Source: Psammoneis japonica (lineage: Eukaryota). Taken from it: a DNA stretch of 64,000 nt. A program made the position numbers and the translations under genes. Of this stretch, positions 1-64,000 are shown in pieces. The notes below the pieces were generated by a model, which was not told the origin of the DNA, made no database searches, and saw nothing but the letters and a program-made list of their open reading frames with translations. Each line of letters begins with the position of its first letter. Position 1 is the stretch's first letter. The stretch is from contig QPGO01000061.1 in the NCBI GenBank assembly GCA_008632985.1, positions 186,001 through 250,000 on the forward strand, given 5' to 3'.

Positions 1-599
1 TGTGCTGAAGCCACTGCAATCTGGCAGCTTTCTAGGACTCCACAAGTCCAATGTCTCATCTGCCCTCTAAGTCACATCAAATTCCATTGCCCTCCTGGCA
101 AACAACTGCAGAGGCAAGTGCCACTGCGCTGTTGCTCTGACGGGTGAAGAAATCCAATGCAATTGCTGTGAGGCACAGAATTTTGAAGGGTGTCTTCCTC
201 AAAGAATTGGGAACATGCATCTCTTCAGCAATGCAAGGGAAAAGGATGGTGTGGCAGTGGTGGAGGCAGCTCAGACATTGTGGGAAGCAGGCCATGTGCA
301 CAAGAAGAGAACAAAGGCGATGCTTCTCCCAATGCTTCTGGCAACTTAGAAACACGTCACAGTGATTCAGAATCCAAGACTGTTGTTGATGGCGGATCCA
401 AAGGATTGGGCAAGAAATTGGCAGATTCCTTGATTGCTTCTGCAAATGAGCTGCGGCAGAGCAGCACGTCATTGCATGCCGGCATGCGGCAGGATGATGC
501 TTGAGAGAGGTTTCTCTGTGTGGGAGTTGCTTGAGCACAGCAATGGCTGTTCACACATGATCACAAGACACCAATGCAATGCTTTGCAGAGTGTTTCAG

Positions 600-3060
600 T
601 TCGACAATGACGGAGTGGTCAAGTCCATCTGCAAGAACACAACGACTGGTGTGTTGGGTGTTTCTCTGTGCGGGAATTGCTCAAGCACTGCAGCAACTGC
701 CATTGTGAGACACCAATGCAATGCTCTGCAGAGTCTTTCCATTGGATGCTGCCTCTCCTCTGATGCATGAAGTGAAGTTAACTCCACCATTTCCATTCAA
801 GGTCCCTCTCAAGCTGAGCTGCCTGCTTCTCACAAAGAGAGAACTGTCTGTCTCCAAATCTCCCAGCAAAAACCAGGTTTTGGGGTGCTTGTAAAAACCA
901 TCAGGTGTGGGAACTTTGAGATGACTTTTTCAGTGGTGCTCAGGAAGCCGCGGCATTGCCTCTCCTCTGGGGTGTCACTTGCCACCATCGGTGCGCATCC
1001 TGACCCTCACCAACAACACCTTGAAAGTTCCCACACTTCTGCAAGCCACTCTCAAGGTAAGTCTGGAGGCAGTGGTGCTGGCAGTGTCAAACTCTGAAGT
1101 GGGGAATGTGTTGAAAAACTTTCTGCTTGGGTGCCCATCTTCATTCTCATCAGAGAAGTGTGAAGGACACCAAGGGTCACCTGCAACACACTTTTCAAAG
1201 AAGTTGAAGCAGATTCAAAATGACTGGCTCATTGGGAAGGGAGCTCCTGGACTGGCTGGTGGGCCAAAAACCTCAAAGAGTGACCCAATCATGTTGAACT
1301 TGGCAAACCGGCTCTTTCTGAATTGGTGGCTCATGTCCTTGAGAACGGAAGTGTCACTCACCCAAAGGTGTCTGACACCATCAAACTCACCCTTGTCCAT
1401 CAAGCTGAGTGTCTTTGACAGGAGGTTGTCTGGGTCAGCCAGCTCTGCCATTGGCTTCTTAATCAGCTCCTGTTTGTGAAGTGAGAACAGCAAAGTCAAC
1501 AAATTGTCCAGCCTGCAAGTGTTGTTGATGCCAGGATGGTCTCCTTTGCTGGGACATTCCATGGGATGCCTTGGAATGAGGTCACAGCATGCCTGGGTGC
1601 AGTTTTCTTTGATGCTGGTGTCTTTGTTTGATTTTTGTTTGCTTCATGGTGCCTCCTGACTGCTTCTTGCTCAAAGAACAAAGCTTTGCTGCCTCCCCTG
1701 GCCTCTTTTTGGGCGCAAGCTTCTTTTTGGCCTTGCCAGCTGCTTTGTGGTGTCTGGTGCTCTTCCATCATTGGGTTTTTTCCCTTGCTTTCTTTTGCTC
1801 TTGGACTTCTTGTGGCCTGACTGGATGGTTTTGTGAGCTCGCAATGGTGTGAAATTCCCCTTGCCACTGCCTTTCTGTCAAAGACATTTGCATTGCAGAA
1901 CTTGAAAGCATGCAAAACTGCTTCTCCAATGGTCAACTTGGTCTTTGGTGCACTGCGCGGAAACTGTTTCCCAACATTTTCCTGTGCATTTGTGTCTGTG
2001 CAGAGCTTTTCATGCCTCTGCTGCTGCAGCTCATCCAGCTGCCTGCATGCAGGAAAGAAATTCTTGCCCTCCTTGGGTTGAGAAACCACTTCAGCCATGA
2101 CTCAGCATTTGGGTGAGATCTGATGAGCAGCTTGCAGGACTTTTCAAACTGAGCAAAGTCTCCTTGGTCAAAGCCCCTCAATCTGTTGACATGGTGGTTA
2201 AAGACATCCTCCCCGTCTGAACTGACAACAGCAGAGTTTCTGGCCACCCTCACAAGCTGTAAAACTGGGCAATCTCTTCATCTGTGGCTTCCCTGTCATG
2301 ACGCTCAAGTGCAAGCTCCTGCATGGCTGCAAAGAAGCCATTTCGAATGTCATCTTGGAAGTTGTTCAAGAAAGCATCCCAGGTGTCAGCCTGGCAGCAC
2401 TGAAGAACCCTGTGCCAGTGGGTTTTGCAGTGTGCAGAAGTTTTGCCAAACAAGATGGAGATGCAGACTGGGACCCACTGCTGCAACACTGCATCAAACA
2501 GTGAAGAGAAGATGACATTGATCTGCCCCTGGAAGTCTGCATCAACAACAAATCCCTCCACTGAGTCAGTCTGCATGGGTGACACTGGCTCTGTGAGCAT
2601 GTCAATCATGTCTTGGTCTTGCATGACAATGTGAGCATCATCTGTGGTGAGCTGCTCTGAAACAATGAGGCTTGAGTCCACTTCTTTTTTGGAAGTTCCC
2701 ATTTGCTTCAAGATCTTCTTCCTCATGTTTTCAACACAGTCTTTGTTGTGAAGGGCTGGATGAATCTGTCATGCTCGAGGCCTGGTTGCAGCCCCAGGTC
2801 TGAGCTGTGCTGGAGTCAACTCAGGAGCAGCTGAGACAAGCTTCTCAAGCCTTTTTTTGTGCCACCACTCTAGGAGCTTGGATGGCGGGGGTCTTGGGTG
2901 TTGGTGCCTCCCTTTGTGGCTCATGAGCCAAGAGTTGGTGCTGACTTCTTGACAGGTCAGCAGGCAAAGGCACTCTGTGTGCTCCAATGTTGACTCTTGC
3001 TCATGATTGGGGCACACTGACTTGGGAGGGAGTGGCAGCCCAAACTTCTTCCTTCCTGTC
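600..3060 (-). pseudogene. Degenerate Mutator (MULE)-like transposase remnant with a WRKY/GCM-like HPRPP motif and a possible C-terminal cysteine-protease-like segment
   Basis: Fragmented minus-strand ORFs (2769-3017, 2250-2726, 1933-2253, 1496-2098, 1215-1562) carry HKGRHQHPRPPPSK, RVARNSAVV, WLKWFLNPRRA, FPAC and DTNAQE, which resemble GCM-type MULE transposases. NNTCRLD and LRGTLNGNGGVNFTSCIR resemble USP-like Cys and His boxes. The region is frameshifted and TpA-depleted; boundaries are approximate. Confidence 0.45.
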
Positions 3061-3077
3061 TGTGGCTGCCAGGGGAG

Positions 3078-3416
3078 AATTCACCCAAGCCTTTGGCCCA
3101 CCACTTCATCTCACACAGCTCGGAAACTCACGCTCTTCCACCACAGCTTTTAACAAGCTCTCATGACAGGGCACTTCACTGACTCAGCAGCAGCAGCTGA
3201 GGGGTTTCTCTCCTCTGCATGCCAAACCCTGGGCTGGGTGTGCCTGATTCACCCAAGCCTTTGGCCCGCCACTTGATCTCACACAGTTCAGAAACTCATG
3301 CTCTTCCACCACAGCCTTTGATGAGCTCATGACAGGGGGCTTCATTGACCCAGCAGCAGCAGCTGAGAGAGGGGTTTCTCTCCTCTGCATGCCAAACCCT
3401 GGGCCAGGTGTGCCTG
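3078..3416. repeat. Tandem duplication, about 170-bp unit x2
   Basis: ttcacccaagcctttggccc...ctctgcatgccaaaccctggg occurs at about 3079 and about 3248. Confidence 0.85.
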
Positions 3417-4169
3417 GGGCCCACCTCAGCCTCCACCGCCCAGAGGATTTCACCCACCCTCTGTCAAGACTTGATCTCCTCCATTTTGGCTTGTGACAAA
3501 AGAAACTGTCGAAAAAAAAACTGTTGTCCAGAGCAAGTTTTTCATGCTGGGAAAAGCTTCTCCCATCATCTTGTGAGTCATCCCCGTCCATTGTGGTGGC
3601 AAAAGGTGTTCAAGCTTGTCAGTTGTGGAGTGTTTCTTGGCAGTTCTCTGAAAACAAAAACAAAAATTGGGGTGCCACAGCCACTTGACAGGATGGTCAG
3701 ATGAAACAGCCCACGTGGTGCAACTGTGAAGAAATTGGATCTTGCGCTCACCAAGCAGTGCCACAGTGCTTCTTTAAAAGGCGGGAAAGGTGCAATCAAA
3801 TGTGAGATTTAACACACGTGGAATTCTACAGAAATCTTGTGCGGCGCGATTTGTGTTGCATCCACACAGAGCGGAAACACTGCTGCAAGAACAACGGTGG
3901 ATGAATCAGATAAACAATGAAAGACAATGCAAATCGGACAAATGCACAAAATTACAAACAACAACATTGATGTACAGGGAAAAAATCAAGGCAGACAATG
4001 GCAGCTACGGTCACCTTGTCGATTGCACTTACACCTTGGACAATTTCTGTTGAGTTGCATGTGTGCGGTTGTGTGCGATGTACAGGTGGCTTGTACTGAG
4101 TTTTCGCGGGACTCAGTGTTGGACGTCAACAACACTTTTCTGCGTAGAGCCGTACAGTGTTACACGAGC

Positions 4170-6410: not shown

Positions 6411-9010
6411 GGCTCGTAAGCGGCCGTCGAATATTGGATCAGCTACAAGGATATCTCCTTTTCCCCGTTATTTTCTGGACACTGTAAGATTTTCCGTGTT
6501 GGTTGTGGGGCGTGCTTTGGGAGCATCCATGTGCAAACATAGTTGTAGAGTTTGAATGAATCATCTTACTAACTAGACCACCCCATAAGCTGGCCACAGA
6601 CCAAGTCTGCGCAGGAAATCCTTAGTTTTATGTTGTGCAGTGTGCAGCAACTAGGATTTGCAGCAAGCAGCAGCCTAAGGTCACCTCCAAGGCGGACACC
6701 CTGTCCCTAACAGGCATGGCATGCCCCTCCACCACTGCCAGCAATTTGCCCAGACTGGGTCCGGGACACACGGCATTTTGTCGCACTTGGCGACATTTTC
6801 TTAAGGCTGGATCGATGTTTAGCACTATTTTTTTTAATAGCTCGTGATTTTCGAATTTCCCCGTACTTCGCCCGTGTTATTTTGCGAAGCCTCTGAGCAC
6901 CCCTAAACACATATGAGTGTGTCCAGCCCCCATCAGGGCTGTTAGACCTTTATGTGAACTACACATATTAACCTTCAAACGCCAATCGTCGTACTTGCCT
7001 CGGTTGTTATATGCGAAAAATCGCCATTTTCCGCCAAAATCGGACTGTTACGGTAGATAAGCCACAACTTTCCAGGAAATGCCGATAATTGGCGTTTGAC
7101 CGGCTATAGACATATCTACAGTCGTTAAGCTACACATCGCCCATGGTCGCAATCGTCATATGTGCATTCTATGTTGTCTTACCAACAGACAAAGTTCGAC
7201 CTATCGCTGTTTTTTTTTTGGCGAACGCGCGCATTATTAGTACGACAAATCCGGGTTATTTTAAATATTTACGAGCTCTAAATAAAATCGACCGCTAAAC
7301 AACGATCCATCCTTAACGCCAATCGTATCAGACGCTCATTGCGCGATTTTGCGGCCCGCATGTGGGCCGCAAAAATCTTATCGCAAATTTTTTGCGGCCC
7401 GCATGTGGGTCGCAAATTCTTAAAATGACGCTCATCTCGGAATGCGCGTGCAAAACTTGCATTGCCGACATCCATCGTTGCACACGTGCACTTCTCAGTG
7501 GCACGCAACAAACTGCAGCAGCACAATGGTGCCCACCGCTGGTCTCCCACTTTACGGTGTGACATCTCAATGATCCTCACACCGATTTCCCCGTTTCTTT
7601 CATCAATGTTGGGAGGGAATGCACAATGCATCTAAATGGATTGGCCCCATCTTCTGTCATTGAGAATTGTGGATTTCTGTTTTGTTCGAAACCACGTGGA
7701 ATTTTCAAATTTGGAAAAGCACGAAATGACGGAATGAGCACTGATTTACAAACACCACACAAACAGTTGTTCTTTTGTGACATGCTAAAACAGATGAAAC
7801 ATGGTTGCACGGAATGTGGTTTCCAACGGCAGCCACTTGGCTGCTGATCTGGTCCAGCTCCTCAACTGTGATGACAGATTGCCGCGCCAGCTTTTTTGTG
7901 GAGTCAACAGAGCGGCTGTTGCTGACACGTGAGCTGTGGATCTCGTGCCTCAACTGTGATGTAATGAACTGCAGATGTGCCAGCTTTGCAAGGAGCAAAC
8001 ACTTTCTTTCAATCTCTGCCAATGCCAACTTGTGTCCTCCTGCAACAGTTCCGTCGCCACGGCGCCTGACCTCTCCTTCGTCTGCGCCCATCATGTTTTC
8101 TTGATGCTTTCCCAAATTGATCACATGGGCATGGGCAATGACCTTGAATCGCACTCGAGCTCTCTTGGCCATTGGCGACTCCACAGGAAGACTTGGAGGG
8201 GGGGCATGTGCGGGTGCAGATGGTGCTTCGGCAGCAGACTGCGACACCGGATTTCGCGGCATGTCTTGAACAGGCGAAAAAGGCATGTCCGTTCCCGCTG
8301 TGAGCAACGCTGACACATCTGGCACTTCTCCAACCATGTTGTCAGGCGTCCGAGATTGCTGGAGTGAACATCCTTCACCGGTGTGGCCTGCCGCAGGGTC
8401 CACCATGGTGGAGGGAGAAATCGGCGAAAAAGTGCGCGAAAATGCATGCACATTTTAGAGGCTACGACAACAACCACTGGGACTTTTTTGACAGATGAAG
8501 TGTCGATTCCCATGTTTTCGGGTGTGCAGAATTCGACTGTGGGGTCAATTCATCGATTGTCTGCATCGTTGAAGATTTGAAAAAATTTGCGGCCCATGTG
8601 TGGGCCGCAAACGGGCATCTGATGCGATTGGCATCAAGGTGGCATGAGACAAAAATTGGCGACAATCGTTTCTGCGCTCATTTTCATTGAAAATCACGGG
8701 AATCAGGAATCCGTCGGCATGGCAAAAGCATTGTGCTTTGTCAGCGAACCACATGGGTCGGCATGCGCGTGATTGCAACTGTGTCGCTCAACGGAAATTC
8801 CGTTTTGGCGATTGATCAGTTGTCGCTTCTTTCTCAATGTCATCTCAGGAGGGCCAGGAAAGGCACTTCCAAGATGAAACACTCGGGAATTCAAGCATGC
8901 AGACACTTTCTCTTGGCTGTCGAGTGAAAGAAACTGCACCTTTTGACACTTTTTTCTGCCTGAGCATCCAACTCAAAACTCAAAGCAGAAAAACAAGACC
9001 TTTTTTGGAA

Positions 9011-9395
9011 GACGCGTTCCACCCTAGGTGGGACTCCGTGTGACATTGGGCCCGTAGAATTCTACGTGCGAGCTCCGTAGTACGAGAATTTAATTAATGG
9101 ACACATTTGTCTTCAACATCAAATAAACGGTCAAGTTTGTGGTACAATTATGCCTCTTACCACTCGACGTTTTTGCAACTTCGCCTGCCCTACGCGATTC
9201 TTAAGACATTGTAGAATCGCGCTGTAACAAAAAATGTCAAAAGTTGTTGGACGGATCACTCAATAAGTGTACCGTAAAATGACACAAAATAAAAAATCAC
9301 GTAGAAATCTACGTGCGCGACATACGACGAGACTCAAAAAACTATCGATGTCACAGTTCAGTAGTACGAGGTCCCACCTAGACCTGGAACGCGTC
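9011..9395. mobile_element. MITE, GACGCGTTCCA-TIR family, pristine copy
   Basis: TIR gacgcgttcca...taggtgggac / gtcccaccta...tggaacgcgtc. 4-bp TSD GGAA on both sides. TA and CG are retained. Confidence 0.9.
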
Positions 9396-10405
9396 GGAAA
9401 TTGTAACATCTTGTTCAACAAACCTCAAAACTTGCAGTTTCTTTGCATGGGAAAGCCAAGGAGACACCAATTGTGAGAATGCAGGACACTTGGTTGAAGG
9501 AAGTGCACAGCACTTGACAGCGTCCTGGGAGAGGCCGAAGCGCGGCCACCGTTTCATGTAGAAACATGCAGAAATCATGCCAGAAAAAATTCCCAACAAT
9601 TTTCGTCTTGCACCACTTTGAGGGTGGTTGGTCACTGCTTTTTTTAGCTCAAATTTGACCAAACAGCTTGTGTTTTGCATGTTTTTTCCTGAATTTCACC
9701 GTGCTTCACTGTGGTGAAAAACCGCAAGCCAGAGCAAAGAGATGAAAAGAGCAAACAAACACCAAAGCATGGGTGGATGTCAGCAAAAAAAAAAAAACAC
9801 TGGCGCAAGACCACAGAGTGTGAACAACATTTCTTGCCACAAATCACTCCCAGAGAGTGTGTCCAAGACAGGGGATGCTTTTTGCAGTTGCAACAAAGAG
9901 ATGACAGCTGCAACTGTGCTCCACCCAGTGTGACAGCACAGCAGCCCTGACACAAACGGCTTCAAGTGGGTTTGTTTTGTGAGGCAGTCTTGAGTTGTGA
10001 GGTGTCATGATGGGACGTGTCATGTTGTGACGTGTTGTGACATGTCGTGTTGTGGCTGGCGTGTTGCACGCTGACAATTTTTTTAACTGCCCCGCCTGTT
10101 GAAATGTCATCACCAAAGTGCAGACAACGCACAAACATCATCAAACACAGTGTGTCACTGAACCAACCAATGTTTCTATCCAGATTGCAGCCAAAAATTG
10201 AATTTTGTCTCAAAAATCTCTTTTCCCGACAAATCATAAATCCATTCAAGGGGGGTCATCCCTGCCTTTGTCCTGAAATTTTGGTGGCATTTGAACAAGA
10301 ATGTTTGTGTGAGAGATTGTTGTTGAATGCAAAAACTGCTCTTGTTGTCACACCCGATTGCCAATCGCACACAAAAACGAGAACATCAAGCACCGCGATT
10401 GAAGC

Positions 10406-10794
10406 GACGGGTTCCAGTCCTGGGTGGGACTTTTTGTGACATTTGCCCCACAGAATTCTGCGTGTGAGCTCTGCAGTTCGTACTCTGGCCAATGGACACA
10501 TTTGTCTTCGACACAAAACAAACGGCCAAGTTTGCAGCACACACATCTCTGTTCGTACTCGAAGTGTTGGACAACGCGCCTGCCCTGCACCATTCTTGAG
10601 ACACTCGAGAATGGCGTAGAAGAAAAAAATGTCAAAAGTTGTTGAATGGATCGCCTGACAATTGCACTGTAAAATGATCCAAAATTTCGCCAAAATCACG
10701 TAGAAATGCACGTGCGCAACATGCGACACAATTCAAAAAACTGTCGATGTCACAGTTCAGCAGTGCGAGGTCCCACCTAGACCTGGAACGCGCC
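10406..10794. mobile_element. MITE, same family, partly converted copy
   Basis: Aligns with 9011-9395. TIRs gacgggttcca / tggaacgcgcc; TSD AAGC. Confidence 0.88.
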
Positions 10795-11007
10795 AAGCAT
10801 GACGATGACAACGATCATCAACATTTCTCAAAAATGCAACATGTCGTGTTTCAAACTTTTCATGTGTGTGAGATCTTTGATGCACAAAGAACACAAAACA
10901 AATGAGAGCTGGTGCATGGACTGCCTCTGCAAAAAGATCACTTTGTCTTGGACATTCTGTGGGTGTGAGCTGTGGCAAGCAAGGATCTTCTGCACCAACT
11001 GCTTGTG

Positions 11008-11406
11008 GATGTGTTCCAGCCCCAGGTGGGAGCTTGCAGCACTGATGTGTGACACAATTTATTTTTGTCATCCATTGCATGTTTTGTGCTTGCATTTCTG
11101 CGTGTGACATTGAAATTGTCCAGACTTGCCATTTTTGCGAAGCCCCAGACATTTCACATGACAAATGTGCAGGAACAACAGCACTCCAGTTGCATTCTTC
11201 AATGTCTGAAGAATGTGCCTGGCCAAGCAAAAAATGATGCACTTCAATCATGGACGAGTTTGTGCCGTCGCAAAATTGCCTCATTTTCCATTGGCAGTCA
11301 TTGACATTTTCATCACCTGACAATTTTTCTGCAGAGCTTGCATGCAGAATTCTGCGGGCCCAATGTCACACAAACTCCCGACTCCCACCCATGTCTGGAA
11401 TGCATC
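11008..11406. mobile_element. MITE, same family, heavily converted copy
   Basis: Aligns with 23048-23436. TIRs gatgtgttcca / tggaatgcatc; flanks TGTG and CACA. Confidence 0.85.
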
Positions 11407-12475
11407 CACAAGACATTTGCCAATGCCTTGATTCCAAGAACACCTTTTTCCTGTGTTTGTCCAATCTGTTGGATGCCAATCGAGCAATGAAGTGGGATGG
11501 TGATGCCAAACAGAATCTTGTGTTGAGTGTCTGAAGCTGACATTTCCTTGTTTTCATTGGCACCGGCAGCATCAGGCATTGTGCATCACACTGCTTGGCT
11601 TCATGCATCCAAGAGTTGAGTGCTGAAGGTGTGGCCCGCACTGCTCTTTGCAGATCACACCAACAGCATGTCCAAGACAGAACAATCTTTTCACAACTGC
11701 AAAGTGAAGACATGAAAAAGTGTGAGTGAAGAGATGAAAGGAACAAACAAACATCATTGCATGGGTCAGTGTCAGCAAAAATGACACCGGTGCAAGACTG
11801 CACAAGTGTGGAGGACATTTCTTGCCACAAATCACACCTGGAGCATGTCCAAGACAGGGGGCACTTGACAGGGGAAACTTCTCTTGACTGTCACAAGTTG
11901 ACAAAAGCAAGGGCATCATCAGAGGAGATGAAACAAGCAAGTGAACATCAAGTGTGGGTTTTGCCGTTCAAAAATGGCCAACAGCAAGAAGACCCATGTT
12001 TTGATGTGCACACAAAGAATGCCCTGTTTCTTGTCAAACCAATGGCCTTGCCTGTTGCTTGGACCTTCTAAAAGCAGCACCCATGTCTTCAATGGACAAA
12101 AACGATGAACAACAGCTCAAGAGGGGTCACCCCCCAAGCTCAATTTGCAGAATTTTGTTTTTGAATGCAAAATTCATTCTGCACTCAAATGATTGCACAT
12201 GAAAACAAGAGCATCAGCCACCACAATCAAAGCACAAGCAACAACGATGTTGATCACACAATGCACACAGAAAGCACAATTCCAATGCAAGTGTGATGCC
12301 AGCAAACCTTTGTCACAGACTTGTGGCTTGCTGTTTTTTCCATGGTGAAGCACAGTGAAATTCAAAAAAATCATGCCAATCATGAGCTGTTTTTGGCTGA
12401 ATTTGAGCTAAAAAAAGCAGCAACCAACCCCCATCAAACAGACTCAAGAATGGGTCCGCAGTGCACCATCGCATC

Positions 12476-12565
12476 TTTTGTTGCATGCTGTTGGGGTTTG
12501 TTGGATTTTGTTGCATGCTGTTGGCATTTGTTGGTTTTTGTCGCATGCTGTCAGCATTTGTCGTG
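12476..12565. repeat. Minisatellite, about 30-bp unit x3
   Basis: ttttgttgcatgctgttgg..tttgttgg repeated three times. Confidence 0.75.
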
Positions 12566-46647: not shown

Positions 46648-47117
46648 TGCGCCGTTGATAACAAATATCATCCGGTCGATTCCATCTGCATTTTTATTTC
46701 AATTAGAATACAGAGAACAGAATAGTACAATATTGTGTAAGTTTATATCAAGCTAGAGTACTTCCTTCGATTGTGGCAAACGAAGTCGTGAAAAGTGATG
46801 ATGTGGATAAAAGACATATGCTCTTCACTCAAAAGAGACAAACGTCCTCCAGACAAAATCCTAAGTCAAATAGCGAGTTCTCGAGCGCAAGCGTTTCACT
46901 GTTTCCACCCAAACGAAGTGTTTTGTGCTAACGTGTTCAAAATTCTTTTTCATTCCATTTCCTTGGACTGACAAAGAACGTCTTGACATTGGCATCAGCG
47001 GCATTCTTGAGGTGTAATAGCGGAAAGAAGTTGGGACTGAAAGGTCCTCCTACTTATTCGTGGTTGCCCTATTTGAACAATCCGAAATGGTTGCTTTAAC
47101 AGCGAGTCGGACGATTG

Positions 47118-51933: not shown

Positions 51934-52330
51934 GATGTGCTCCAGATGCAGGTGGGAATCCATTTGACACATTGGGCCCATGAAATTCTACGCACAAGCT
52001 TTGTGCTAAAATCATGAGGCAATGGATGTGTCAATGATTGCCAACAGAAAATGAGGCAATTTTGTGAATGCACAAACTCGGCCATGATCAAAGCACATCA
52101 TTTTTCACTTGGCCAGGTGCGTTCTTCAGACATTGAAGAATGCACCTGGTGCATTATTTACCCACAATTTTGTCAAACAAAATGTCTGTGGTTTTGCAAA
52201 ACAGCGAGTCTGGAGCAATTTTTTGTAAGATCACAAGTGGAAATGCAAGTGCAAAACATGCAATGGATGACAAAAAATGATCACGTCAAATGTCAGTGCT
52301 GCCAGCTCCCACCCAGGGCTGGAATGTGTC
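51934..52330. mobile_element. MITE, same family, heavily converted copy
   Basis: Aligns with 52658-53036. TIRs gatgtgctcca / tggaatgtgtc; flanks CCCA/TCCA. Confidence 0.85.
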
Positions 52331-52657
52331 TCCAACCAGCACCAGTGCAGCACATGCCATGATGCTGTCAACGTGAAGGAAAATGGTGGGGGTTTTGGCT
52401 GGGTGTCATTGAAAACCCTTGTGCCACCAACTGACCAGCTAAAAATTAATTTGAGGTTTTGCGTGACATCATGCTCAGTGGCATGGAAAATCGGCAACAA
52501 AATTTGTGGCTTGTCAACACAAAATTAGAAATGGCTTGCATTTGCGCACATGACAATGCCAGTGACAAGGTCTGGCCATCGCAGCTTGCACACATGTCAG
52601 TGGCAGGTCTGATCTGGCCAATTGCTGCCCAAAGCAGAAACACTTTCGTTCGCACTT

Positions 52658-53036
52658 GACGCGTTCCAGACGTAGGTGGGAATCCGTGTGACATTGGGCC
52701 CGTAGACGTAAAAATTATACGGTAATTAAAATCTCAATGATCGCCAACAGAAAATGAGGCAATTTTGCGAACGCACAAACTCGCACATGATTGAAGTACA
52801 TCATTTTTTACTTAGCCAGTTACATTCTTCAGACATTGAAGAATGTAACTGGCGCATTATTGTTTCTATAAATTTGTTATATAAAACGTCTGGGGCTTCG
52901 CAAAACAGCGAGTCTGGACAATTTTTTTTAAATATCACACGTAGAAATCTACGTACGAAACATACGACGGATGATAAAAATTATTGTTGTCACACGTCAG
53001 TATACTACGAGCTCCCACCCAGGGCTGGAACGCGTC
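52658..53036. mobile_element. MITE, same family, pristine copy
   Basis: Perfect 11-bp TIR; TSD ACTT; TA/CG-rich. Confidence 0.92.
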
Positions 53037-53174
53037 ACTTGCCACACACAAAAATGAGAGAAAGTGGCCAATTTTTTGTTTTGTGGTCGACTTTCTGTGC
53101 AACCAGTGTGAGCTGAAGTGCTGCCTGCCTGCCAAAAATTGGGAGACATGCAGAATGGGCACCAGAGGCTGTGC

Positions 53175-53571
53175 AGCGTGTTCCAGCTCTGGGTGGGACC
53201 TCGCACTGCTGCGCTGTGACATCAAGAGTTTTTTGGATCATGTCACACATCACGCACGCAGATTTCTGCATGTGATGTTCTGTGAAATTGTTTCATGCTC
53301 CCCATTTTGCAAAGCCAAAGGCTTTCCATTTTCAACATTTGTGAGAGTGAAAATGCTCTGGGTGCATTCTTTGATGTCTGCAGAGTGTGCCTGGGCAAAC
53401 TGTCAATGATGTGCTGCAAGTGTGAAGGAGGAGACACATTTGCAAAATTGCCTCTTTTTCTGTTGGCGATCATTCACATTTTCGTTGCTCAACAAATTTG
53501 CTGTGGAGCTCGCACACAGAATTCTGTTGGCCCAATGTCGCGCAGAGTCCCACCCAGAGCTGGAACCCGTG
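53175..53571. mobile_element. MITE, same family, converted copy
   Basis: TIRs agcgtgttcca / tggaacccgtg; TSD GTGC. Confidence 0.8.
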
Positions 53572-54299
53572 GTGCGGAGGATTTGAATGACGTGCAAAGC
53601 CTGGCACTGAAACTTGGTGGCAGCACACGCACAATCTTGCTGGACATAACATGCAGGTGCAATGGCCAGACATCACCCATTTCTGTCAAGATGTTGAGCT
53701 GCGTGGGTTTTGCTGGCCACTCGGGCATGCGATGTCAAAAAGATTTGTTTGTGACTGACTGACTGGCTGACTGACTGAGTGTGTGTGTGACTGCTTTGGT
53801 CTTGGGAATGTGACAGTTTGTCGTGGAGCTTCCGGGTTGTGACAGGAGTTCGTGCAACGTTGTAATGCAGTGCGGTGATTTTACATCGATGCACATGTTG
53901 TGAGAGTTCTGAGGGGTTCAGACCTCGTGCAATGACTCCGCCGTGCAGCGCACTTTGTGCTCTGCGCTGCTGTGTGTCACATGATCCTTCATGCACGGAC
54001 AACATAAGGCAATGGCGTTAGCACACACATAAACCGCTGTTTATTTCCATCCTTGTTTCTGAACATTTCCATGTTGCACTCGAGCACGGTGGTCAATGCC
54101 CTGCCGAATAAGCAAGGGCTTGTTATTTACGGTAGACGTACGTACAGTACATGTTCTACGGTACGTGTCGTCCCACAATGTCAGTACATAGTGTCCAGTG
54201 ACATTACGTAGGATCTGGTACATGTTCTACGTATCGCCCTTTTTGCGACGGCCGTAACCCTGCCAGACTGTCACCCGAAAACGGTAAACAGCTGAATAT

Positions 54300-54428
54300 C
54301 GTGGCGAGTCGTCATTGAGGGTAAAATCTTCGTCATTGTATGTGCTATAAAATGCCAGCTTTAAGTACGTGGCGAGTCGTCATCGAGGGTAAAATCTACG
54401 TCATTGTATGTGTTATATAAAATGCCAG
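54300..54428. repeat. Tandem duplication, about 68-bp unit x2, upstream of the GPCR gene
   Basis: cgtggcgagtcgtcat.gagggtaaaatct.cgtcattgtatgt..tata(ta)aaatgccag at 54300 and 54368. Confidence 0.85.
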
Positions 54429-54561
54429 AATTAGTACGATTGCATTGTACTACAAATCACATGCGAATGCAATCGATCGCAACAATATGTAAAATACATA
54501 AGAGCATCATCAGCATCTACTGTATGATAGGGCTACTTCGTCCTTCATCCTTTCAACAAGA

Positions 54562-57500
54562 ATGAACCTCTGTCAGCCCGGAATTTTCGGTGACGATGAT
54601 GAGAGCATCTGTCAGAATTCCGACTTCTCGATTCGACGCGTTGGCAACTTGAACGTTGTTCGCAACCCAGTCACTGGACGGGAGCTAGGCATTTGCCACC
54701 TTGCGGGGATCATCGGATTTACCTTGATCGCCGGCGACGGTGAAACGTATCCATTTTCGTATTCCTACCTTCATGCCGCGACTGCTCAGCTTGCGATTCA
54801 GCACTTTAATACAGGCAACGGAACGATAGTGCCGGATTTTGAAGGCATCGACAAGCGGTGCCCCATCAGACTCTCGGCAGAGTGGGCGGATACCAAATTG
54901 TCTGAATTTGAGAGCTTGCGACTGCTTACCAAGATTGTCACGCGGAGCGGGGGAATCGATGATGTCTTGCCTTGCGCCATACTGGGTCCGTCGCGCTCCT
55001 CTTCCACTGTGCCGGCTTCGATTCTTTCGTCGGTGCATGGGTATCCGAGTATGTCGTAAGTTTAGAAGGTTTTCATCCCGTATGTATCAATTGTGACCTT
55101 GATGCCTTTCTCACTGTGAAGCTTTTTTTTTTGTTTTCTATTTCTAGATGGACTGCTGCCAGTGCCTCTCTAAGCGACAGGGATGAACGTAAACACCCGC
55201 TCTTTGCACGGGCGATAGTTTCTACAGATGAAGTTGCCGAACTTGGCGTTCGTCACATTCGGACAGAACTCGGCTTTGAACACTGCGCGTGTCTCTTTCT
55301 CAATGACGAATACGGCAGTGCGGTGCAACGAGCCTTTTTCGCCGGCGCCAATAACGCGGGCTTGACAACCATTTCTGTTCCCTTTCCCAGCACTCCCACC
55401 ACTGAACAAATACGCGAGGCAATCGCCAAAGTCAAGCAGACAGAGTTCCGTTGCATTTATGGCGTACTGGCTACATCTGATCAATATGAAGCCTTCATGG
55501 AGGAAGCATATCATCAAGGAATTGCCGGGGAAGACTATTTCTGGCTCATTGCCAATCCTATGAGGTTGGGTGAGTATCCAGCTGGATCGCCTCTTGATTT
55601 GGCTATCCAGGGCAACGGGTTTTTGGCGGGTGACGTTGGGAGAGGCCCCGGGATCAACCGTTTCAAAGCGTCTTGGGGCAGTTTGGATAGCAACGACTTG
55701 GAGTACCTCAATTCGCTGCTGCCTCCGACACCCTTCAACTTGACTGATTTTTTTACTTTGGGAGATCAAGATATTGACGCTGGCAACTTTGTGTATGACA
55801 CCGTGGCTGCGATCGGTCTAGCTGCATGCAACGTAACGAATAGGTCCGGAGGCAACTTTTCACTTTTCACAGGAAGAGAACATGCGCAAGCGATTATTCA
55901 AGGACGACCTTTTCATGGTGCTTCTGGCTTTGTCAGGATCAATCCACAAAGTGCCTCACGCACAGGAACCAGTGTTTCTTGGGACGTATCAAATGCACGA
56001 AGAAGCGGTCCCGTCAATGGAACCTCTTCCTTTGAGATGACTACGTCTGTGATCTATCGGCCGAACGAAGATGGGACCGACTGGGAAATGAATATCACCG
56101 ACCCATTTGTTTATGCGGATGGCAAACTGAATCCACCGGCGGATTTGCCACCCATCAACGGAGGCAACGGCGTAGATATGAATTATATCGGGTCCCTGTC
56201 AATTGTGGGTTATGTTCTCTTTGGAATTGTTCTGAGTTTTTGCCTCGCCTTTGCTGGCTGGACGTACAAGAACCGATCTGTCAGACTTGTACGCGCATCT
56301 CAGCCTGAATTCTTGGGAATGATTATTGCGGGTACAGCAATCTTTTCGTCGGCCATCATTCCACTGACAATGGACGATCAACATTACACATCTGAGCAGC
56401 TCAGTATCTCATGCATGTGTGTTCCTTGGTTGTTGGCAATAGGATTTGGCATCGCCTTGTCTGCACTGTTCTCGAAACTGTGGAGAGTACGGAAGATTGT
56501 GGGCAGCGCGTCAAGGTTTCGACGTGTTCAGGTAAAGCCCAAAGAAGTCATGGCACCCCTTTTGGTAATATTGACGCTTAACGTCATTGTTCTGATATGC
56601 TGGACTGCGCTGGCGCCACTAGAGTTCTTTCGGGTGCCCGCAGTGGGGACCGACAAGTTCAACCGCGTGATTGAGTCATACGGCGAATGCTCAGCGGCCG
56701 AGACGGCTGCGGCAGGAGGGACCACCCCTTACTTAGTCCTTCTCCTGGTGATAAACTTCTCTGCCACTGCAGCGGCACTCATTGAGGCCTACCGCACGCG
56801 GCATGTGTCTACCGACTACAGCGAGTCAAAATACGTCTCTATTGCTGTGATATGCATTGTTGAAGTTTTCGTCGTCGCGATACCTCTGATTGCACTCATC
56901 GAACGAAACCCGCAAGTGTCTTTCATTCTAACTGCCTCATCATATTTATTATATCGATGGCGATCATAATGCTGGTATTTGTGCCCAAGGTATGGTTTGA
57001 AAGACAGGAAAGATTTGAACTCGAACAGAAGAAGAAACGGAGAGCGGAACGATTATCTAGCCAGCAATTTTCAGGTACGTCGTTGGCGAGCGATACAGAG
57101 TATGGCTTGGGAGTGTATGCTCTGCCTACAATTGAGCACACCATGGGCGGCAAAATTCGACGGAGCCAGCTACCATTGGTAAACGGAGCCGAGGAAAGTA
57201 CGAGGGGGGCAGCGGTGGATCCCGACACAGGTGAAGAGTCACCGAGTTTGGGAGGTTGCGTTCACCCTGATATCGAAAACACTCAGTCGGGTGACATTCT
57301 AGAGACGCAATCGCGTCAGATGCCCGCAGAAGATGAACAGGAGGAACCTCAGCTCCCTGAAGAGTCGCCGAGTTTGGGAGTTTCCGTTCACCGCGATAAC
57401 AAAAGCACACAAGCAGAGGAAATTCTAGGAACGGAATCGCGTGAAATGTCCGTGGTAGAAGAAGACGGAGATGAGGAACCTCAGCTTCCGCATCTACCGG

Positions 57501-57568: not shown

Positions 57569-58944
57569 CTAGAAGAACTTTCCCATTTGATAATTTATTT
57601 CGCCTAGTTGTTGAGTGGAGGAGTCTCTACAGTAACTCCGCACGCTACAAAATGACAGGTGGCAACTACTAGCGGAGCCCTGAAATGAATCGGAAATGTG
57701 GAGACAATATGTGTGTTCGACAACCCAACAACAAACCGATGCTACCTGCCTCCAGAGGATAGCGCAAAATTATCTCTACCGCATCATAAACTACTTCTGC
57801 ACAAGTTATCAAAGCGTTGACAGCCAACAAACCGAAGCTGATAATTATTTGTTCATTGGATGGGGTGAGATGACAAATTTTTGGAATCAAGCAGTCAAGG
57901 ATGAAGATGACCGAAAGACACCCGTGACTGATGTGACTTACAAAAATGCATTCCATCTCATGGCTTGTTGGCAAGAGTTCAGAAGGAAAGGGAATGTCGT
58001 GGCAACTGTTCTGCCAGTGAAGGAGGCGAACAGGAACTTGAGACGGGAGTTGAGAGGACCATCTCGAACAACAGACATTGCTTTCCTTGAAAGCAGGAAA
58101 ACAGCAGGAAGGACTCCTCGCAGTGAGCCGGCATCAGAATCAATGGAGGATGATCTGAAGCCACACTCTGTTTTTGAAGACGACCAAAAGATTCCGACCG
58201 TTGTTGATTTCCACAGCACAGATGATGATGCTGACTTTCTTCCAACAGCTAAAGACGACCACAATGTGGGCGATGCAAAAGATGCAGAATCGCCATCACA
58301 AGAGCCTGTTGCTGTCCTTCCTTTCACAGGCAAATGATGCATCAAGGGAGGTGGAGGCACTGCTGTTGCTCAGGGAGTGGTCAGGATGGGGAGATGCATT
58401 GTTGAGGCCAAAATGGAAGAATGATTAACACCGGGGAAACCTGTGAAAATGTCGGCAGAGAGCGCGTGGGCTGTCATTGTCACCAACCTGGACAGTGTGC
58501 AGGTTGTGACAGGGGTGTGACATTGTTGTTTGGCAGATGACAGATCGAAGGACAGCTTGTGAAGTGTGCAGAGGGAGAAAGGGACAGGCGCCAGAGATGG
58601 CAGAAACAGAGCAAAACAGAGAGGAAAAAGCTCATGAATGCAAGGAACAGGAGGGACAAAACACACGCAAACTTAACAAGTTCAAAATGCAAACTAATTG
58701 AGCCACGCAGGTGACTTGAAACACACAAAAACAATCAAATCATTCATCACTTGACAACTGCAAAACAACAAAATCAACAACCATGCAAATTGAAGATTGG
58801 TGGAGACAACTGGTGTGCATGTGAAAATTTTGTTTGTCAACAAGTTTGGCTCTTGTCAAGTGCCAAAACATGTCACAGACGGCAATGTTGGTTGTTGTTG
58901 ATGGTGCTGCAATGGCTGTGTCATGCATTGCAAGCTCTGGCGAG

Positions 58945-59340
58945 GATGTGTTCCAGCTCAAGGTGGGGCCTTGTGTTGCTGAAGTGTGACATCAAGAGTT
59001 TTTTGGATTGTGCCACATGTTGCACACGCACACATCCATGTGTGATCTTTTGCGAAATTGCTCTACACTTCCTGTTTTGTGAACCCAAAGGCTTTCCATT
59101 TTCAACATTTGTGAAAATGAGAATGGGCTGGGTGTGTTCTGCGATGTGTCCGCAGAATGCAGCCGGGCAAACTCAATGATGTGCTTGAGTGTGAATGAGG
59201 AGATGTGTTGTCAAAATTGCCTCTTTTGCTGTTGGCGACCACTCACATTTTCATTGCTTGACAATTTTGCTGCGGAGCTTGCGTGTGAAAACACACGGCC
59301 CAAATGTTGCACTGAGTCCCGCCCAGGGCTGGAATGCATC
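58945..59340. mobile_element. MITE, same family, converted copy
   Basis: TIRs gatgtgttcca / tggaatgcatc; flanks CGAG/CAAG. Confidence 0.8.
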
Positions 59341-59739
59341 CAAGCTGTCTTGGTCTTTCAAACTTCCCAAACTTGCCCTTTGTCAATGAGGTGCCATTGG
59401 GTCCCTGGGGCACTGCCCATGTCAGGAATGAAAATTTCCAACATCAGACTGTTCGCACTCGGGATTGGAGTCCACAACCTGAGGTGAGGACTTGGCTCGA
59501 TGGGTCATCCTGTTGTCATTCAACTGCTGACAACACCGCTGACAAGGAGAAGCACCGCCATGTGGACCGAGACACGACTCGATCACAGCACTGTGGGGCC
59601 AGACATCTCTTGCTGCAAACGCAACCTGCAGGTGCAAACAATGTGCAAGCATGTGCTGCATCATTGCAGCATGTGCTGTTGCAAAATTGCCTCTTTTTCT
59701 GTTGTTGGCAATCATTTTTAACATTCATCATCTGATTCC

Positions 59740-62700
59740 TTTCACACAACAAAGAGCTTTCAACAATGTGACACATTCGCACAAGCAGGGCCCGAGCAAA
59801 TCTAGCTGCCGAACAGGCTCAGCCACTCACAGTCTTGGTGCGACAGCGCGAATGCAACCGACAAGATGCTTCTGGGCCTGTTGCAACTACAACAGATGCA
59901 ACAAGTGAAAACCATTCCGTGGTCATCGGCATTTTGGTCCGCACACCAGTCACAGTTTCTCCACAGCACCTCCCAGAGCACACCAGACAGTCCCTGATGC
60001 ATCGGATTTCACTCGGTCCCCTCGAAATGTGCCTGACTCGTAAGGCACAATTCGATCCAATGCTGCATCAGTGGTCTAACTGAAACAATCTTGACTTGTC
60101 GATCGACGTAAAACCCTTGCCAGGGAAAAGCCGCCAATCCTCCATGCATGGTGCAAACCCTCACCAGGGAAGAAACTCACCACCGCTCCATGCATCCATC
60201 TCAATGCGCGAACTTGTCTAACAGAAAATTCCGCCTGATGGACGACACAACCTTCATGAACAGATCGCCAAGGTTTGTCTCTGTTCCCTCCTTTGCAATC
60301 CTAACAGTCCCCGCAGCAACAGCTTCGCAGTTGCGGTGATGCGCAATGGAGTGATGCTTCTTCTTGAGTGTAGACTCAGGAATGGAGCAATTCTTGTAGA
60401 TGGCCTCATTGTCACAGAAGACATTTGTTGGCCCTTCGATCGGCACTCCAAACATTCGAAGCTTGTGTCGCAGGCCCTCTGTGAGCTCGATGGCACTCTT
60501 GAGTGCAACGATCTCAGCCCCAAATGTGCTAGCCTCCACGGCATTCTGACACTTCGAGTGCCACACGATGGGTGCCCGGTTAACAAACATCAAGATGCCT
60601 GCATGGCTGCGGCGATCGGCAACATTTCTGGCATGGTTGGCATCCACAAAACAATGTGTCGACACCACATTACCTCAAGCTGGTGGTGCATTTGTCAGAA
60701 TGGCTTCTCTTGCATCTCGGTGGAAGTCGCACCAGTCGCACTTCACGAATCGTGATTCATCGATCTTGGGATGAGCCGGATCAAATGCTGCTTGGCACTT
60801 TGGGACCTGTTTGAGGCATGCAAAGATGTGCAACACCTGTTCCAGATGACCAATGCGAGGAAGAGCGAGGTGAGCAGACATTGACGAAACCTCCAAATGG
60901 ATGTCCACTCTGCCGAGTTCCACAGCCCAAACCAGTGTGCCAATCAGCTCTTGACAGCAGTGAAGTCCTTCAGCGTCCAACTCGCCAGCAGTGTCTAACT
61001 GGGTTTGCATCCACTGCTCAATGGGGTTGTCGCCTTGCCAGGCAGACGTTTCCCCTCCTTGCCAAGCCTGTCCTCTACATTTTGGACAGCGGACTTGCAG
61101 TGCTTCTCCGCAGACATTGGCCAACAGGCAGTCCCATCGGCTGAAGTCATCTTGGAAAGCGCAGCACCGAGACAAGAATCTGGCTCAGCTACCTCATCAC
61201 CCTTGAGCTTGAACTTGGACCTGATGCCATCCATTGTCTTCATGGGTTCGTGACTGATCGACAGCATGTCGTCCACATAAACTAGAACGTGTTCGCAGTG
61301 CTTGAATCCGTTGGGTTTCACCGCAGGTCTCATCCATGCATCCGGATCAGCCTTGCTCGGTTTGCACCCCAGATCATAAAGCGTCTCCACCAGGAATGCC
61401 CTGAACGCTGCTCCGGAGCTCTTCAATCCGTGTGGAGCCCTGACCACAATCATGATGCAACCTTCATCCTCGCCAAACTCGGGCCCTGCTCTGGTCCAAA
61501 TCTTCTCCCTGCAAGGGGCAGCAAGGCAGGCGTTCTGGGTGTCACATGCAAAGACTTGTGAGTCATTGAGCGCAGCAAGCGTCAGTGCAATCCTCACCGA
61601 ATCCCGAGAGACGACCGAGGAGCAAGTGATGTGTGCGGGGGTTTCAGCAGTGTGGCCTCCAGCCACCATGTGAGCTTTACGGCGGAAGTTTTCTCCCAAT
61701 TTGACATCAAAAATCACACGACACTTCACTTCCTGGAAACCAGGCACCATGTCCTTAAGCTCCCCTTCACACTTGTCAAAAGCAATCCACACATTCTTCA
61801 TCTCCATGCAAATGGCGTCCCACCACAGGGTGTTGCCATTTGCGCGATCGATCTGGATCGCCTCCTCGACACTCTTCGGGATCCGTGTGCCAAATTTGTG
61901 TGTTCGTAGCCAATGCTTCGACTTGACCTTCGCAATGGAACGCTTGCGGGTTTTCATGACATGGGGAACCCACCAAGCAAACGCTGCCTCGTTCGAGATC
62001 TTGCACTGAATGGCAAACTCGGCAACTTGGACTGGGAAGCTCTCCTTCGCAATCTTCAAGTCGATCCAAGTAGCACTTCCATCCTTCCATTGAAACAAGA
62101 GTTCCCATCCTTTGGCAGTCTTGCGCCTCTTCCGAATGCCTTGCTCGGTCTCAAAGAACTCGGATTCAGGAACGTCCCCGTTGGTGCGGCAATCAACGAT
62201 CTCGTCAAATGAGACATGCCGGTTTCCGTCCTTGTCGATCTGAGCAAACATGTTCATGGCGATGGAGTTAGCAGAGAGTGCAGCATGGTGCCCATCAGGG
62301 TGCTCTGCCTCATGCATCCTTGCATCAAGGATGGGATTGTCATTGGCTGTTCCTGTCGGAATGCCATTGGCATCTCTCAACCTCTTCGTGACACGAGCAC
62401 ACTCAGGACCATCATCATCTCTTGGAAGCGCAACTTCCATGTTAAGGTGTCCCCAGTCCGCCGCCTCCGGTGAGGCTTCCTTGTCTTTCTTGTCGTCATC
62501 GTCATTTGTTGCCTCCTCTGAGGATGTGACACGATCACACTCATCGAGGAATTCATCGTCGTATCCAAGGCAGTCTTTCCAGTCTTTGGGACTGATCTTG
62601 CGATCCTCGTCATCGGGGAAGTCTTGCTCCTTCAACCGGCGCTTGATCTCCTCGTCAAAACTGTCAAACTTCGCCTTTTTCTCTTGAGTGGCGGCTTCTA

Positions 62701-64000
62701 AATTGGTGACTCGTTGAACAGAAGTTCTCGAAATGACACTGCCTGTCTGTGTCAAAACGTAACACGACATGAGACTCCCTGTTCTGTGAGACACACCAAG
62801 CCACCCGCCGAGCTTCTCGTCCCCTGGACCGGCATTCTCCCTGTGCCAGACCCAATCATAAAATCCAAAGTCAAGGCACTCCGAGATGTCCACGGTCTCT
62901 CCGAGAACGTTCTCCAGTGGTGCTCCAGCATCCAAATGATGTGCTCTAAGGAACGTGTGAGACATGGTCTCACATGTCCATGTAAATCCGCAGTCCCACA
63001 GTCGCCGCGGTGCTTGCTTCTTGACCATGATGCGGAACCACTTGCGTCCAACCTCACGTACAACCCCTTCTGCAGGATTCTGGTTGTGTCGATCGGGTTC
63101 GATGATGTGACAATCTGTGCCCTCCTTGCGCACGGTCTTCACGAACTCCGTGCCAGGTTTTGTTTGCTCCTTAGATCCATCCATCAGGAGTTTCTCTGGC
63201 ACGCCAAATTCCTGGCAAAACATCTTGAGAGCCTCACCAGCCTTGCTCTTCTTGTCCATGGGATAAATCGCAGCAAAGCATTGCTTGTTTGTAAAGATCT
63301 GGGCATGTCGATTGCCCTCTGGCGAAACCACCTTGCCATCAACCGTGTCGGTTGCCCATTCACCCCGTAACCTGGGCTTCGTGAACATCCGATCGGCCCG
63401 ATGGCATCAACCCATTGGCATCAACGCTGACCTGATGAGCTTTTGCGCAGTCTTCTTGAGCATGCTTGCTGCTTGCTTGAGTCCTGTGCACCATCGTTCA
63501 CTTGAGTCAGCAACCGACACATCACTGTGTCTCTCCTTGGACATGAATGTCTTCGGGAGTGCCAAGTCTTCAGGTCCTTCGCCGACAGTTTCCGTGGCAG
63601 AGATCTGGACTGTTGGCTCCGATTCCACATTAACGGCGGCTGTGAGCCTTGATTGGACTTGATCGACTCCACAAATGAATTGCTCATTGCAACAGTCCCC
63701 GGACTGAGGGTTGCTGCAGGCAGGATCAGCTTTGAACTCGTGTGTCAGATTGGCGTGGATCGTCGCAATTGACCGAACTAGCTCCATTTCCTCCTCCGCA
63801 GATCGTCGAGTTCCAATGGATTTGAACTCAACGGTCTGTGGATCCCAAGGTTGTTGGGAGGTCATCTGGATCTTGGGGCATTCGTGCAATTCCTGCTCTG
63901 CAGGAGTGCGAGTTGCCGCAACAATGTTGGTTCCCACAGCTTCAAGCGGCATCATGAAAGATCTGTCCTCTGTGAGGATGTGCAGTGGCGAATCGGAGCA
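59740..64000 (-). mobile_element. Ty1/copia (CoDi-like) LTR retrotransposon, 3' part; continues beyond the window
   Basis: Integrase-RT-RNase H domain order. Polypurine tract GAGGGGA on the minus strand at about 60017-60023. Putative 3' LTR at about 59740-60016, with an uncertain left boundary. Confidence 0.85.
60201..63955 (-). pseudogene. copia pol (integrase, reverse transcriptase, RNase H), frameshifted and hypermutated
   Basis: FCQEFGVPEKL..DGSKEQ, HNQNPAEGVVRE, FRRKAHMVAGGH, GLKSSGAAFR, VLVYVDD, FVDANHA, FCDNEA and LKKKHHSIA. Frame breaks near 63390, 61000 and 60670. Confidence 0.9.

Follow-up and report, generated by a model that had tools for sequence, protein, structure and literature searches.

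The DNA analyzed here, referred to below as the window, is a stretch of 64,000 nucleotides of contig QPGO01000061.1 (positions 186,001 to 250,000, forward strand) from the assembly GCA_008632985.1 of the diatom Psammoneis japonica. An earlier note, made from the sequence alone, had proposed that transposon-derived tracts within this stretch have been stripped of the dinucleotide TpA by a mutational process that converts it to TpG or CpA and acts together with CpG decay. The whole window contains 1336 TA dinucleotides (observed/expected ratio, O/E, 0.31), and its O/E values for CG, TG and CA are 0.65, 1.50 and 1.47, respectively. Segmentation of the window with a two-state hidden Markov model (HMM) of TA density revealed nine TA-depleted tracts with sharp edges, which together comprise 36,219 bp of the 64 kb (i.e. 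more than half of the window) and whose coordinates match closely the TA-poor intervals listed in the note. The nine tracts contain 171 TA, compared with 2,366 expected from base composition and approximately 1,396 expected at the O/E of the gene-bearing DNA. When pooled, they show O/E values of 0.07 for TA, 0.41 for CG, 1.70 for CA and 1.73 for TG, with AT, AA and TT near normal; the corresponding values for the remaining, gene-bearing 27,781 bp are 0.59 (TA), 0.97 (CG), 1.18 (CA) and 1.20 (TG). The proposed CpG decay alongside TpA loss is thus borne out. The TA O/E is between 0.02 and 0.09 in eight of the tracts and 0.12 in the ninth, and genes located about 90–930 bp from the tract edges are spared.

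The first tract (1–3774) contains 11 TA (O/E 0.05), in agreement with the earlier count by eye of about 12 in positions 1–3780, and has a CG O/E of 0.15. In the second (7422–9024; TA O/E 0.07) CpG is largely retained (CG O/E 0.80). The largest tract (9405–23062) has 65 TA in 13.7 kb (O/E 0.07) and carries two degraded copies of a family of MITEs (miniature inverted-repeat transposable elements; 10406–10792 and 11013–11406), a remnant of a Copia retrotransposon on the plus strand (16124–17069) and one copy (A, 17653–18936) of a direct repeat. The second copy of this repeat (B, 25067–25509 plus 25916–26733) is located in the tract 23391–26701, where it is split by a half-mutated MITE (25519–25914). 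The tract 36313–37852 contains a degraded MITE (36777–37162; 1 TA) and a partial MITE copy (37345–37564), whereas the following one (40816–43504; 4 TA, O/E 0.02) contains a tandem array of 5.5 units of 162 bp (42573–43499). Degraded MITEs are also present in the tracts 50181–52672 (copy 51932–52334; 5 TA, 5 CG), 53007–54004 (copy 53172–53570; 0 TA) and 57847–64000 (copy 58948–59334; 1 TA), the last of which also holds a Copia polyprotein remnant. The 36 kb of tract DNA contains 111 stop-to-stop open reading frames (ORFs) of at least 110 aa, because the codons TAA and TAG are gone from TA-free DNA and TGA is the sole remaining stop. No tRNA or Rfam matches were found in the window.

The MITE family, with a length of approximately 380–400 bp and terminal inverted repeats that are imperfect and span about 24 bp, is represented by ten aligned copies. 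TA counts of 30, 29 and 26 are found in three copies whose terminal inverted repeats are intact, whereas the other seven (the six degraded copies named above and the half-mutated one) contain 8, 6, 5, 1, 1, 1 and 0. The intact copies are located at 9011–9393 (HMM segment 9025–9404; 26 TA, 29 CG) and 23048–23438 (segment 23063–23390; 30 TA, 25 CG), both inside depleted DNA, and at 52658–53036 (segment 52673–53006; 29 TA, 25 CG). The last of these had been described in the note as pristine and set against the copy 51932–52334; both copies are present at these positions and contain the strings quoted there. Thus, three TA-rich segments of 330–380 bp (TA O/E 0.85–0.92) stand untouched within depleted tracts. 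Over the intact copy 52658–53036, contigs of a sequencing run reach a summed depth about 800-fold higher than in single-copy bins (a ratio that is not a copy number), which indicates the existence of many near-identical copies and suggests that this is a recently active, high-copy element. The 4-bp duplications flanking the MITEs, as read from the alignment, differ in sequence among four copies.

The direction of change was determined within this family. The ancestral state was taken from alignment columns in which two TA-rich copies of one subfamily agree, and three derived copies were scored against it. T>C or A>G changes were observed at 56 of 141 bases belonging to a TpA, compared with 16 of 433 other A/T bases, and 56 of the 64 changes at TpA-member bases were of these two types. 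The restriction to TpA is also apparent for adenine taken separately: A>G occurred at 27 of 72 adenines of TpA, but at only 8 of the 187 adenines, those of ApA among them, that lie outside TpA. In the three derived copies 18, 23 and 23 of about 24 TpA steps had been struck, with a level of change outside TpA of only 3–10% despite the near-complete loss of TA from the tracts, so that the rate at TpA lies well above background. Across 129 site-by-copy cells in three MITE subfamilies, an ancestral TpA is now CA in 48, TG in 46, TA in 12, CG in 3 and another dinucleotide in 20. Since one and the same site reads CA in certain copies but TG in the rest, and TA alone is one step away from both, TA must be the ancestral state. 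Both the enrichment at TpA and the TpA-to-TpG/CpA direction proposed earlier are therefore upheld by the polarised changes. The opposite polarity, in which the TA-rich copies would be those mutated, by repeat-induced point mutation (RIP), is ruled out by these CA/TG alternatives together with the Copia outgroup test described below.

The larger Copia (Ty1/copia, RVT_2) polyprotein remnant lies on the minus strand at 60204–64000, where it runs off the window end, and includes the ORF 60998–63406. It shares 58–68% identity with intact relatives, the best named of which are from Fragilaria, Fistulifera and Nitzschia, and has a tyrosine content of 0.75%, compared with 3.65% in these relatives. The outgroup test used 354 columns in which at least 80% of 40 intact relatives share the residue. 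At the 19 of these columns occupied by Tyr, the window copy has His in 7, Cys in 6, Phe in 3 and Tyr in 3 (His or Cys in 13 of the 16 changed columns), and it retains the conserved Trp (15 of 15), Asn (12 of 12) and Gly (33 of 35) residues. Replacement of Tyr by His or Cys is exactly what is expected of the codon changes TAY to CAY or TGY, and the direction deduced from the MITEs is thereby supported by a second element. In a metagenome comparison, 80 loci were kept among 564 confirmed Copia relatives; all 80 have a TA O/E of 0.44–0.94, and the lowest value for any 1-kb window is 0.32. The Copia family is therefore not natively TA-poor, which contradicts the possibility, raised in the note against its own proposal, that the transposon consensus is itself TA-free. 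Among 217 clusters of Copia homologues, three consist of Tyr-free fragments (P0225/P0261 from Logan, P0259 from NCBI/ENA, and P0237/P0262 from JGI), in which His or Cys occupies the conserved Tyr columns in 11 of 12, 4 of 4 and 5 of 7 cases. These protein fragments show what appears to be the same footprint in other assemblies. Two members of one of the Tyr-free clusters differ from each other in their His/Cys outcome.

The accuracy of the sequence was examined by comparison with the word-based Logan contigs of a sequencing run, X1, over positions 36000–55999. Word depth was about 57–63 in genes and TA-free tracts alike, with the exception of MITE-bearing bins. Contigs of 5.7 and 8.6 kb traverse the tracts, and only 16 single-letter differences from the window were found in 20 kb; one contig of 5,718 bases covers 37108–42825 with 2 differences. 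Contigs of such length and depth presumably need accurate reads, so noisy long reads could not have yielded them. The X1 contigs thus rule out a consensus or base-calling artefact, but they do not amount to an independent specimen. It is very improbable that the pattern arose by assembly, polishing or base-calling at modified bases, or that the elements were TA-poor from the start owing to foreign composition or selection against TA. The first of these explanations gains something from the fact that the platform of X1 is not on record and that the run may derive from the assembly's own sample. It would have to account for contigs that pass through kilobases of tract at a depth of about 60, and for outcomes that differ between copies at the same ancestral site; the second is countered by the normal TA content of all 80 Copia relatives and by the His and Cys residues of the window copy at positions where they have Tyr. 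A further run, X2, covers only 43.8–49.9 kb, i.e. the neighbourhood of a gene pair described below and no tract. Despite its listing as “DNA?”, this run has an uneven depth (up to 294) that resembles that of transcripts.

The two copies of the 1.3-kb direct repeat (17653–18936 and 25067–26733) differ by 190 mismatches in 1,290 columns. Among these are 14 pure CA/TG double mismatches, with more occurring within longer runs of mismatches. In the 162-bp tandem array, both CA and TG are present in 13 of 18 mixed columns; an ancestral CG could give the same pattern, and 4 of the 13 columns still show CG. The changes have thus arisen in place, in the individual repeat copies and array units. Along the tracts, TG and CA follow one another at random (runs-test z from −1.5 to +1.9; autocorrelation ≤0.02), as they do in genes, and no strand-coordinated clusters were found in the tracts by either test. 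This points to independent single-site hits on either strand, unlike the clusters left by RIP or by APOBEC enzymes. With regard to the direct repeat, its single mismatches are strand-asymmetric (46 C/T compared with 12 A/G) in a region that is CT-rich on the plus strand, and 19 C/T mismatches have a following G, compared with 3 A/G mismatches with a preceding C.

These observations bear on whether the changes could have been made in RNA, by ADAR-like A-to-I hyperediting of transposon transcripts that was then fixed by reverse transcription. ADAR-type enzymes favour a 5′ U (cited in bioRxiv 10.64898/2026.01.13.699255), and one of the affected elements is a retrotransposon. However, the MITEs, which are DNA transposons, are equally affected, CA/TG alternatives have accumulated in place between the direct-repeat copies and between the array units, and the two strands are affected to the same extent with no strand coordination. 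This explanation is consequently considered exceedingly improbable.

The relationship between TpA loss and CpG decay was analyzed in 128 windows of 500 bp scored for TA and CG O/E. Of 38 windows with a CG O/E below 0.4, 35 also have a TA O/E below 0.15, and the other three straddle tract edges. Conversely, nine of the 128 windows have a TA O/E below 0.15 with a CG O/E of 0.7 or more. The same order is seen in the MITE 25519–25914, which has lost 22 of 30 TA and 1 of 25 CG (8 TA and 24 CG are left); 75% of its TpA steps are gone at a level of 3.4% change at bases outside TpA and CpG. Taken together, the losses in this MITE and the nine CG-normal windows place TpA loss ahead of CpG loss and show that it does not depend on the latter. 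C>T and G>A changes at CpG are also seen in the same tracts. Deamination of 5-methylcytosine (5mC) at CpG, which likewise turns a palindromic dinucleotide of silenced DNA into TG or CA and operates in the same tracts, is slower than the TpA loss. As the source of the TG/CA excess it was rejected, since it cannot remove TA, and TA has been lost from the nine windows with a CG O/E of at least 0.7.

Another explanation, requiring no dedicated enzyme, is error-prone patch repair or translesion synthesis (WA errors of the Pol eta type, with weak mismatch repair) in late-replicating, methylated heterochromatin. The tracts do show the CpG decay expected of methylated DNA, in which T:G repair patches would arise, and the events are single-site and without strand coordination, as this mechanism would predict. 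We nevertheless regard it as improbable, given that so narrow a specificity does not fit it (A>G at 27 of 72 adenines of TpA compared with 8 of 187 elsewhere), that TA is nearly gone (O/E 0.02–0.12) with only 3–10% change elsewhere, and that TA loss comes before CpG loss rather than after it.

At least three age classes can be distinguished in the window: the old tracts, the half-mutated MITE 25519–25914 and the untouched MITEs. The process has been recurrent or long-lasting, and it looks to have had at least two episodes. The note had described it as repeat-targeted, and this part of the proposal is not supported: high-copy TA-rich MITEs remain unmutated inside mutated DNA, so repetition alone is not the trigger, and no second copy of the mutated tracts is apparent at ≥95% likeness. 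These data would be better explained by targeting through chromatin state or foreignness, combined with time, than by repetition.

In our judgement, a targeted mutational process acting on TpA is very probably real. The explanation that we regard as probable overall is an in-place, TpA-restricted A:T-to-G:C process that acts locally on old mobile-element DNA. The gene-free tracts would represent such DNA (MITEs, Copia and unidentified material), and the losses would have accumulated through many single-site events over time and not through a few processive sweeps along single strands. Our reading is that an enzyme is directed to silenced or foreign chromatin, where it would modify one base of TpA. 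The tracts are placed in silenced chromatin because they later lose CpG, as methylated DNA does.

The survival of a TA depends on the sequence that flanks it. When the 171 residual TA are sorted by flank, ATAT is absent, GTAT/ATAC occurs once and CTAT/ATAG three times, compared with 34 TTAA and 39 CTAA/TTAG, a distribution very unlike that of gene DNA. The outcome also depends on the 5′ flank: in the MITEs, sites preceded by a purine became CA in 35 cases and TG in 18, whereas those preceded by a pyrimidine became CA in 13 and TG in 28 (Fisher p 0.0017). Similarly, Copia Tyr codons with a 5′ purine became His in 6 cases and Cys in 2, those with a 5′ pyrimidine became Cys in 4 and His in 1, and the three surviving Tyr codons all have a preceding T. 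The extended motif is thus RTA>RCA, equivalent to TAY>TGY on the other strand, and YTAR sites such as TTAA resist. Since an A>G change appears as T>C when read from the complementary strand, these data fix only the motif RTA/TAY and not the modified base, for which the note had named the A of TpA.

The favoured chemistry would be conversion of adenine to hypoxanthine in 5′-TAY-3′, read as G at the next replication. It is preferred because it gives A>G directly, and because the base modified by tRNA adenine deaminases natively has T on its 5′ side; the TadA tRNA deaminases act in a UAC context. If the process is real, a DNA adenine deaminase is our tentative candidate for its agent, with a chance somewhat short of even. 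The main rival is modification of thymine, in which a dioxygenase of the JBP/TET type would oxidise the T of RTA to 5-hydroxymethyluracil or 5-formyluracil, with occasional pairing to G leading to T>C. Thymine hydroxylation in dinoflagellates and kinetoplastids favours TpA. Moreover, the motif can equally well be written as purine-T-A with the T changing, the site is palindromic with the strands equally affected (48 CA and 46 TG in the MITE cells), and errors of replication at a modification standing in the duplex would agree with the absence of strand coordination. However, the window showed no thymine dioxygenase; its only ORF resembling a 2-oxoglutarate oxygenase, 37938–40649, has a match to PF13640 that falls below the cut-off, and no relative in PDB. 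On balance, oxidation of thymine seems unlikely, and adenine deamination is retained below as the favoured chemistry.

A process of the same kind has been described once. In a literature search, the one directly relevant paper found was the preprint of Mettrop et al. (bioRxiv 10.64898/2026.01.13.699255), which reports TpA-only A:T>G:C hypermutation of integrated viruses in the chlorarachniophyte Bigelowiella natans; the search yielded no description of TpA hypermutation in diatoms, and the accessible text of the preprint makes no mention of them. The statement in the note that no such system had been described is thus superseded. According to the same text, 231 of 302 nuclear mutations in mutation-accumulation lines of B. 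natans were located in two regions, one of an integrated giant virus and one of a virophage; A>G or T>C accounted for 230 of these 231, each of them on TpA. Mutation proceeded there at approximately 1000 times the background rate, in some lines only. TpA-depleted coding sequences of this organism are enriched in reverse-transcriptase and DDE domains, and the authors propose an ADAT2-like DNA adenine deaminase as the agent (bioRxiv 10.64898/2026.01.13.699255).

The window and B. natans share changes that are almost exclusively A>G or T>C, that fall on TpA and that are located in foreign-derived or mobile regions of a genome that is otherwise normal; on these grounds the two processes are judged to be of one kind. 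They differ in several respects. B. natans is a rhizarian, whereas P. japonica, as a diatom, is a stramenopile. The targets in the window are MITEs and Copia, with no viral gene detected in it, in place of viral regions. The TA O/E of 0.07 in the tracts is near saturation, compared with a Rho of 0.45 in the nucleocytoplasmic large DNA virus (NCLDV) region of B. natans, and TpA loss in the window is coupled to CpG decay, unlike in the B. natans account. The RTA/TAY-sensitive, YTAR-resistant motif and the absence of strand coordination are reported from the window, and the word “context” is absent from the preprint text. In B. natans the rate was measured in mutation-accumulation lines, whereas the process in the window is read from its footprint alone. 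With respect to that account, the window thus adds a second, distant lineage, transposons as targets and a much deeper footprint.

The process can also be set against better known systems. RIP of ascomycete fungi resembles it in being a local transition hypermutation that wrecks mobile elements, skews dinucleotide composition and spares genes. RIP, however, makes TpA from CpA, whereas the process in the window destroys TpA. Furthermore, duplication is the trigger of RIP, and each RIP event mutates a single strand; in the window, high-copy TA-rich MITEs have escaped mutation and no strand coordination is seen. APOBEC acting on cDNA and ADAR acting on double-stranded RNA are similar in being transition-only, in having a fixed 5′ neighbour and in attacking foreign nucleic acid. 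The substrates of these enzymes are single-stranded or RNA intermediates, and the resulting clusters are strand-coordinated, whereas the process in the window hits the resident duplex DNA of DNA transposons, symmetrically and at TpA. The amphioxus enzyme BjADAT2, the one eukaryotic ADAT2 for which DNA editing has been shown, demonstrates that a tRNA adenine deaminase can edit DNA, but it prefers GAA (for adenine) and TCG as well as hairpin loops, and not TpA (PMC10354150).

Several points weigh against the in-place, TpA-restricted process favoured above. The evidence comes from a single window of 64 kb, with a single MITE family and a single Copia copy. For the MITEs, the ancestral sequence was deduced from two or three TA-rich copies, and the derived copies may share history, so that the cells scored are not all independent. 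No TA-free windows were found among the 80 metagenome Copia loci, a sample that favours young, intact elements, so that the environmental data gave no second case in DNA. As mentioned above, run X1 has no platform on record and may stem from the same sample as the assembly. The 16 differences between its contigs and the window include six A>G or T>C changes, only one of them on TpA, and thus give no sign of present activity. No deaminase gene was seen among the window genes, and the preference of the DNA-editing BjADAT2 for GAA and hairpin loops counts against plain ADAT2 as the agent. Finally, a Pfam search of the 111 tract ORFs identified one transposon-type domain (RVT_2), so the origin of most of the tract DNA is unproven. 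The earlier description of the tracts as transposon-derived stands for the MITE copies and the two Copia pieces, for which a mobile-element origin is established, and is unproven for the rest. Three further Pfam matches of tract ORFs, none of them to transposon domains, were marginal (E 0.0045–0.0094) and were treated as chance.

In mobile DNA, targeted hypermutation has been known chiefly in the form of C-to-T editing, by RIP and APOBEC. Its A:T-to-G:C counterpart confined to a single dinucleotide had previously been reported once, in the chlorarachniophyte preprint, and a footprint in a diatom means that the process is no curiosity of one strain. It is evidently able to erase essentially every TpA over tens of kilobases, outpacing methyl-CpG decay and leaving a readable extended motif. 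We can also envisage, as a possible but doubtful extension, a dedicated, chromatin-guided DNA-editing defence, common to stramenopiles and rhizarians, that erases TpA (RTA/TAY) from invading DNA. If this were true, such a defence would either be old within the stramenopile-alveolate-rhizarian (SAR) group or have spread by transfer, and it would employ an enzyme that naturally edits A:T to G:C in resident nuclear DNA, as the mirror image of fungal RIP. The footprint opens a comparative route to the enzyme behind the process, through asking in which diatoms the footprint is present and what genes accompany it. Genetic tools are available for diatoms, which are also of major ecological importance, and an enzyme of this type would attract interest for base editing. 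A practical consequence concerns annotation: in TA-free DNA, gene callers will make spurious Tyr-free “proteins”, which enter protein databases.

The DNA between the tracts contains several genes. Two tandem paralogous genes encoding Duc1 proteins (PF08588) are located at 43984–44871 and 45637–46647 and are about 73% identical at the DNA level. The Duc1 protein has 43 relatives, with up to 63% identity, and the named ones are from diatoms or from a diatom-derived endosymbiont (Amphora, Seminavis, Durinskia). Together with the Copia relatives, they led us to read the window as DNA of a raphid pennate diatom. A class C G-protein-coupled receptor gene (54963–56969), a single ORF of 668 aa, has a 7tm_3 domain and an ANF receptor ligand-binding domain. 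The ORF 37938–40649 (903 aa) lies between two TA-free tracts, and its sub-threshold match is to a 2-oxoglutarate-Fe(II) oxygenase (PF13640; 24.2 compared with a cut-off of 27 bits). It was considered as a lead to the hypermutation and set aside, having no TET/JBP match and nothing that links it to hypermutation. On the minus strand, an 886-aa ORF (47327–49987) has a sub-threshold match to sulfotransferases, and an internal direct repeat of about 860 bp with 75% identity is present in it, at 47005–48621.

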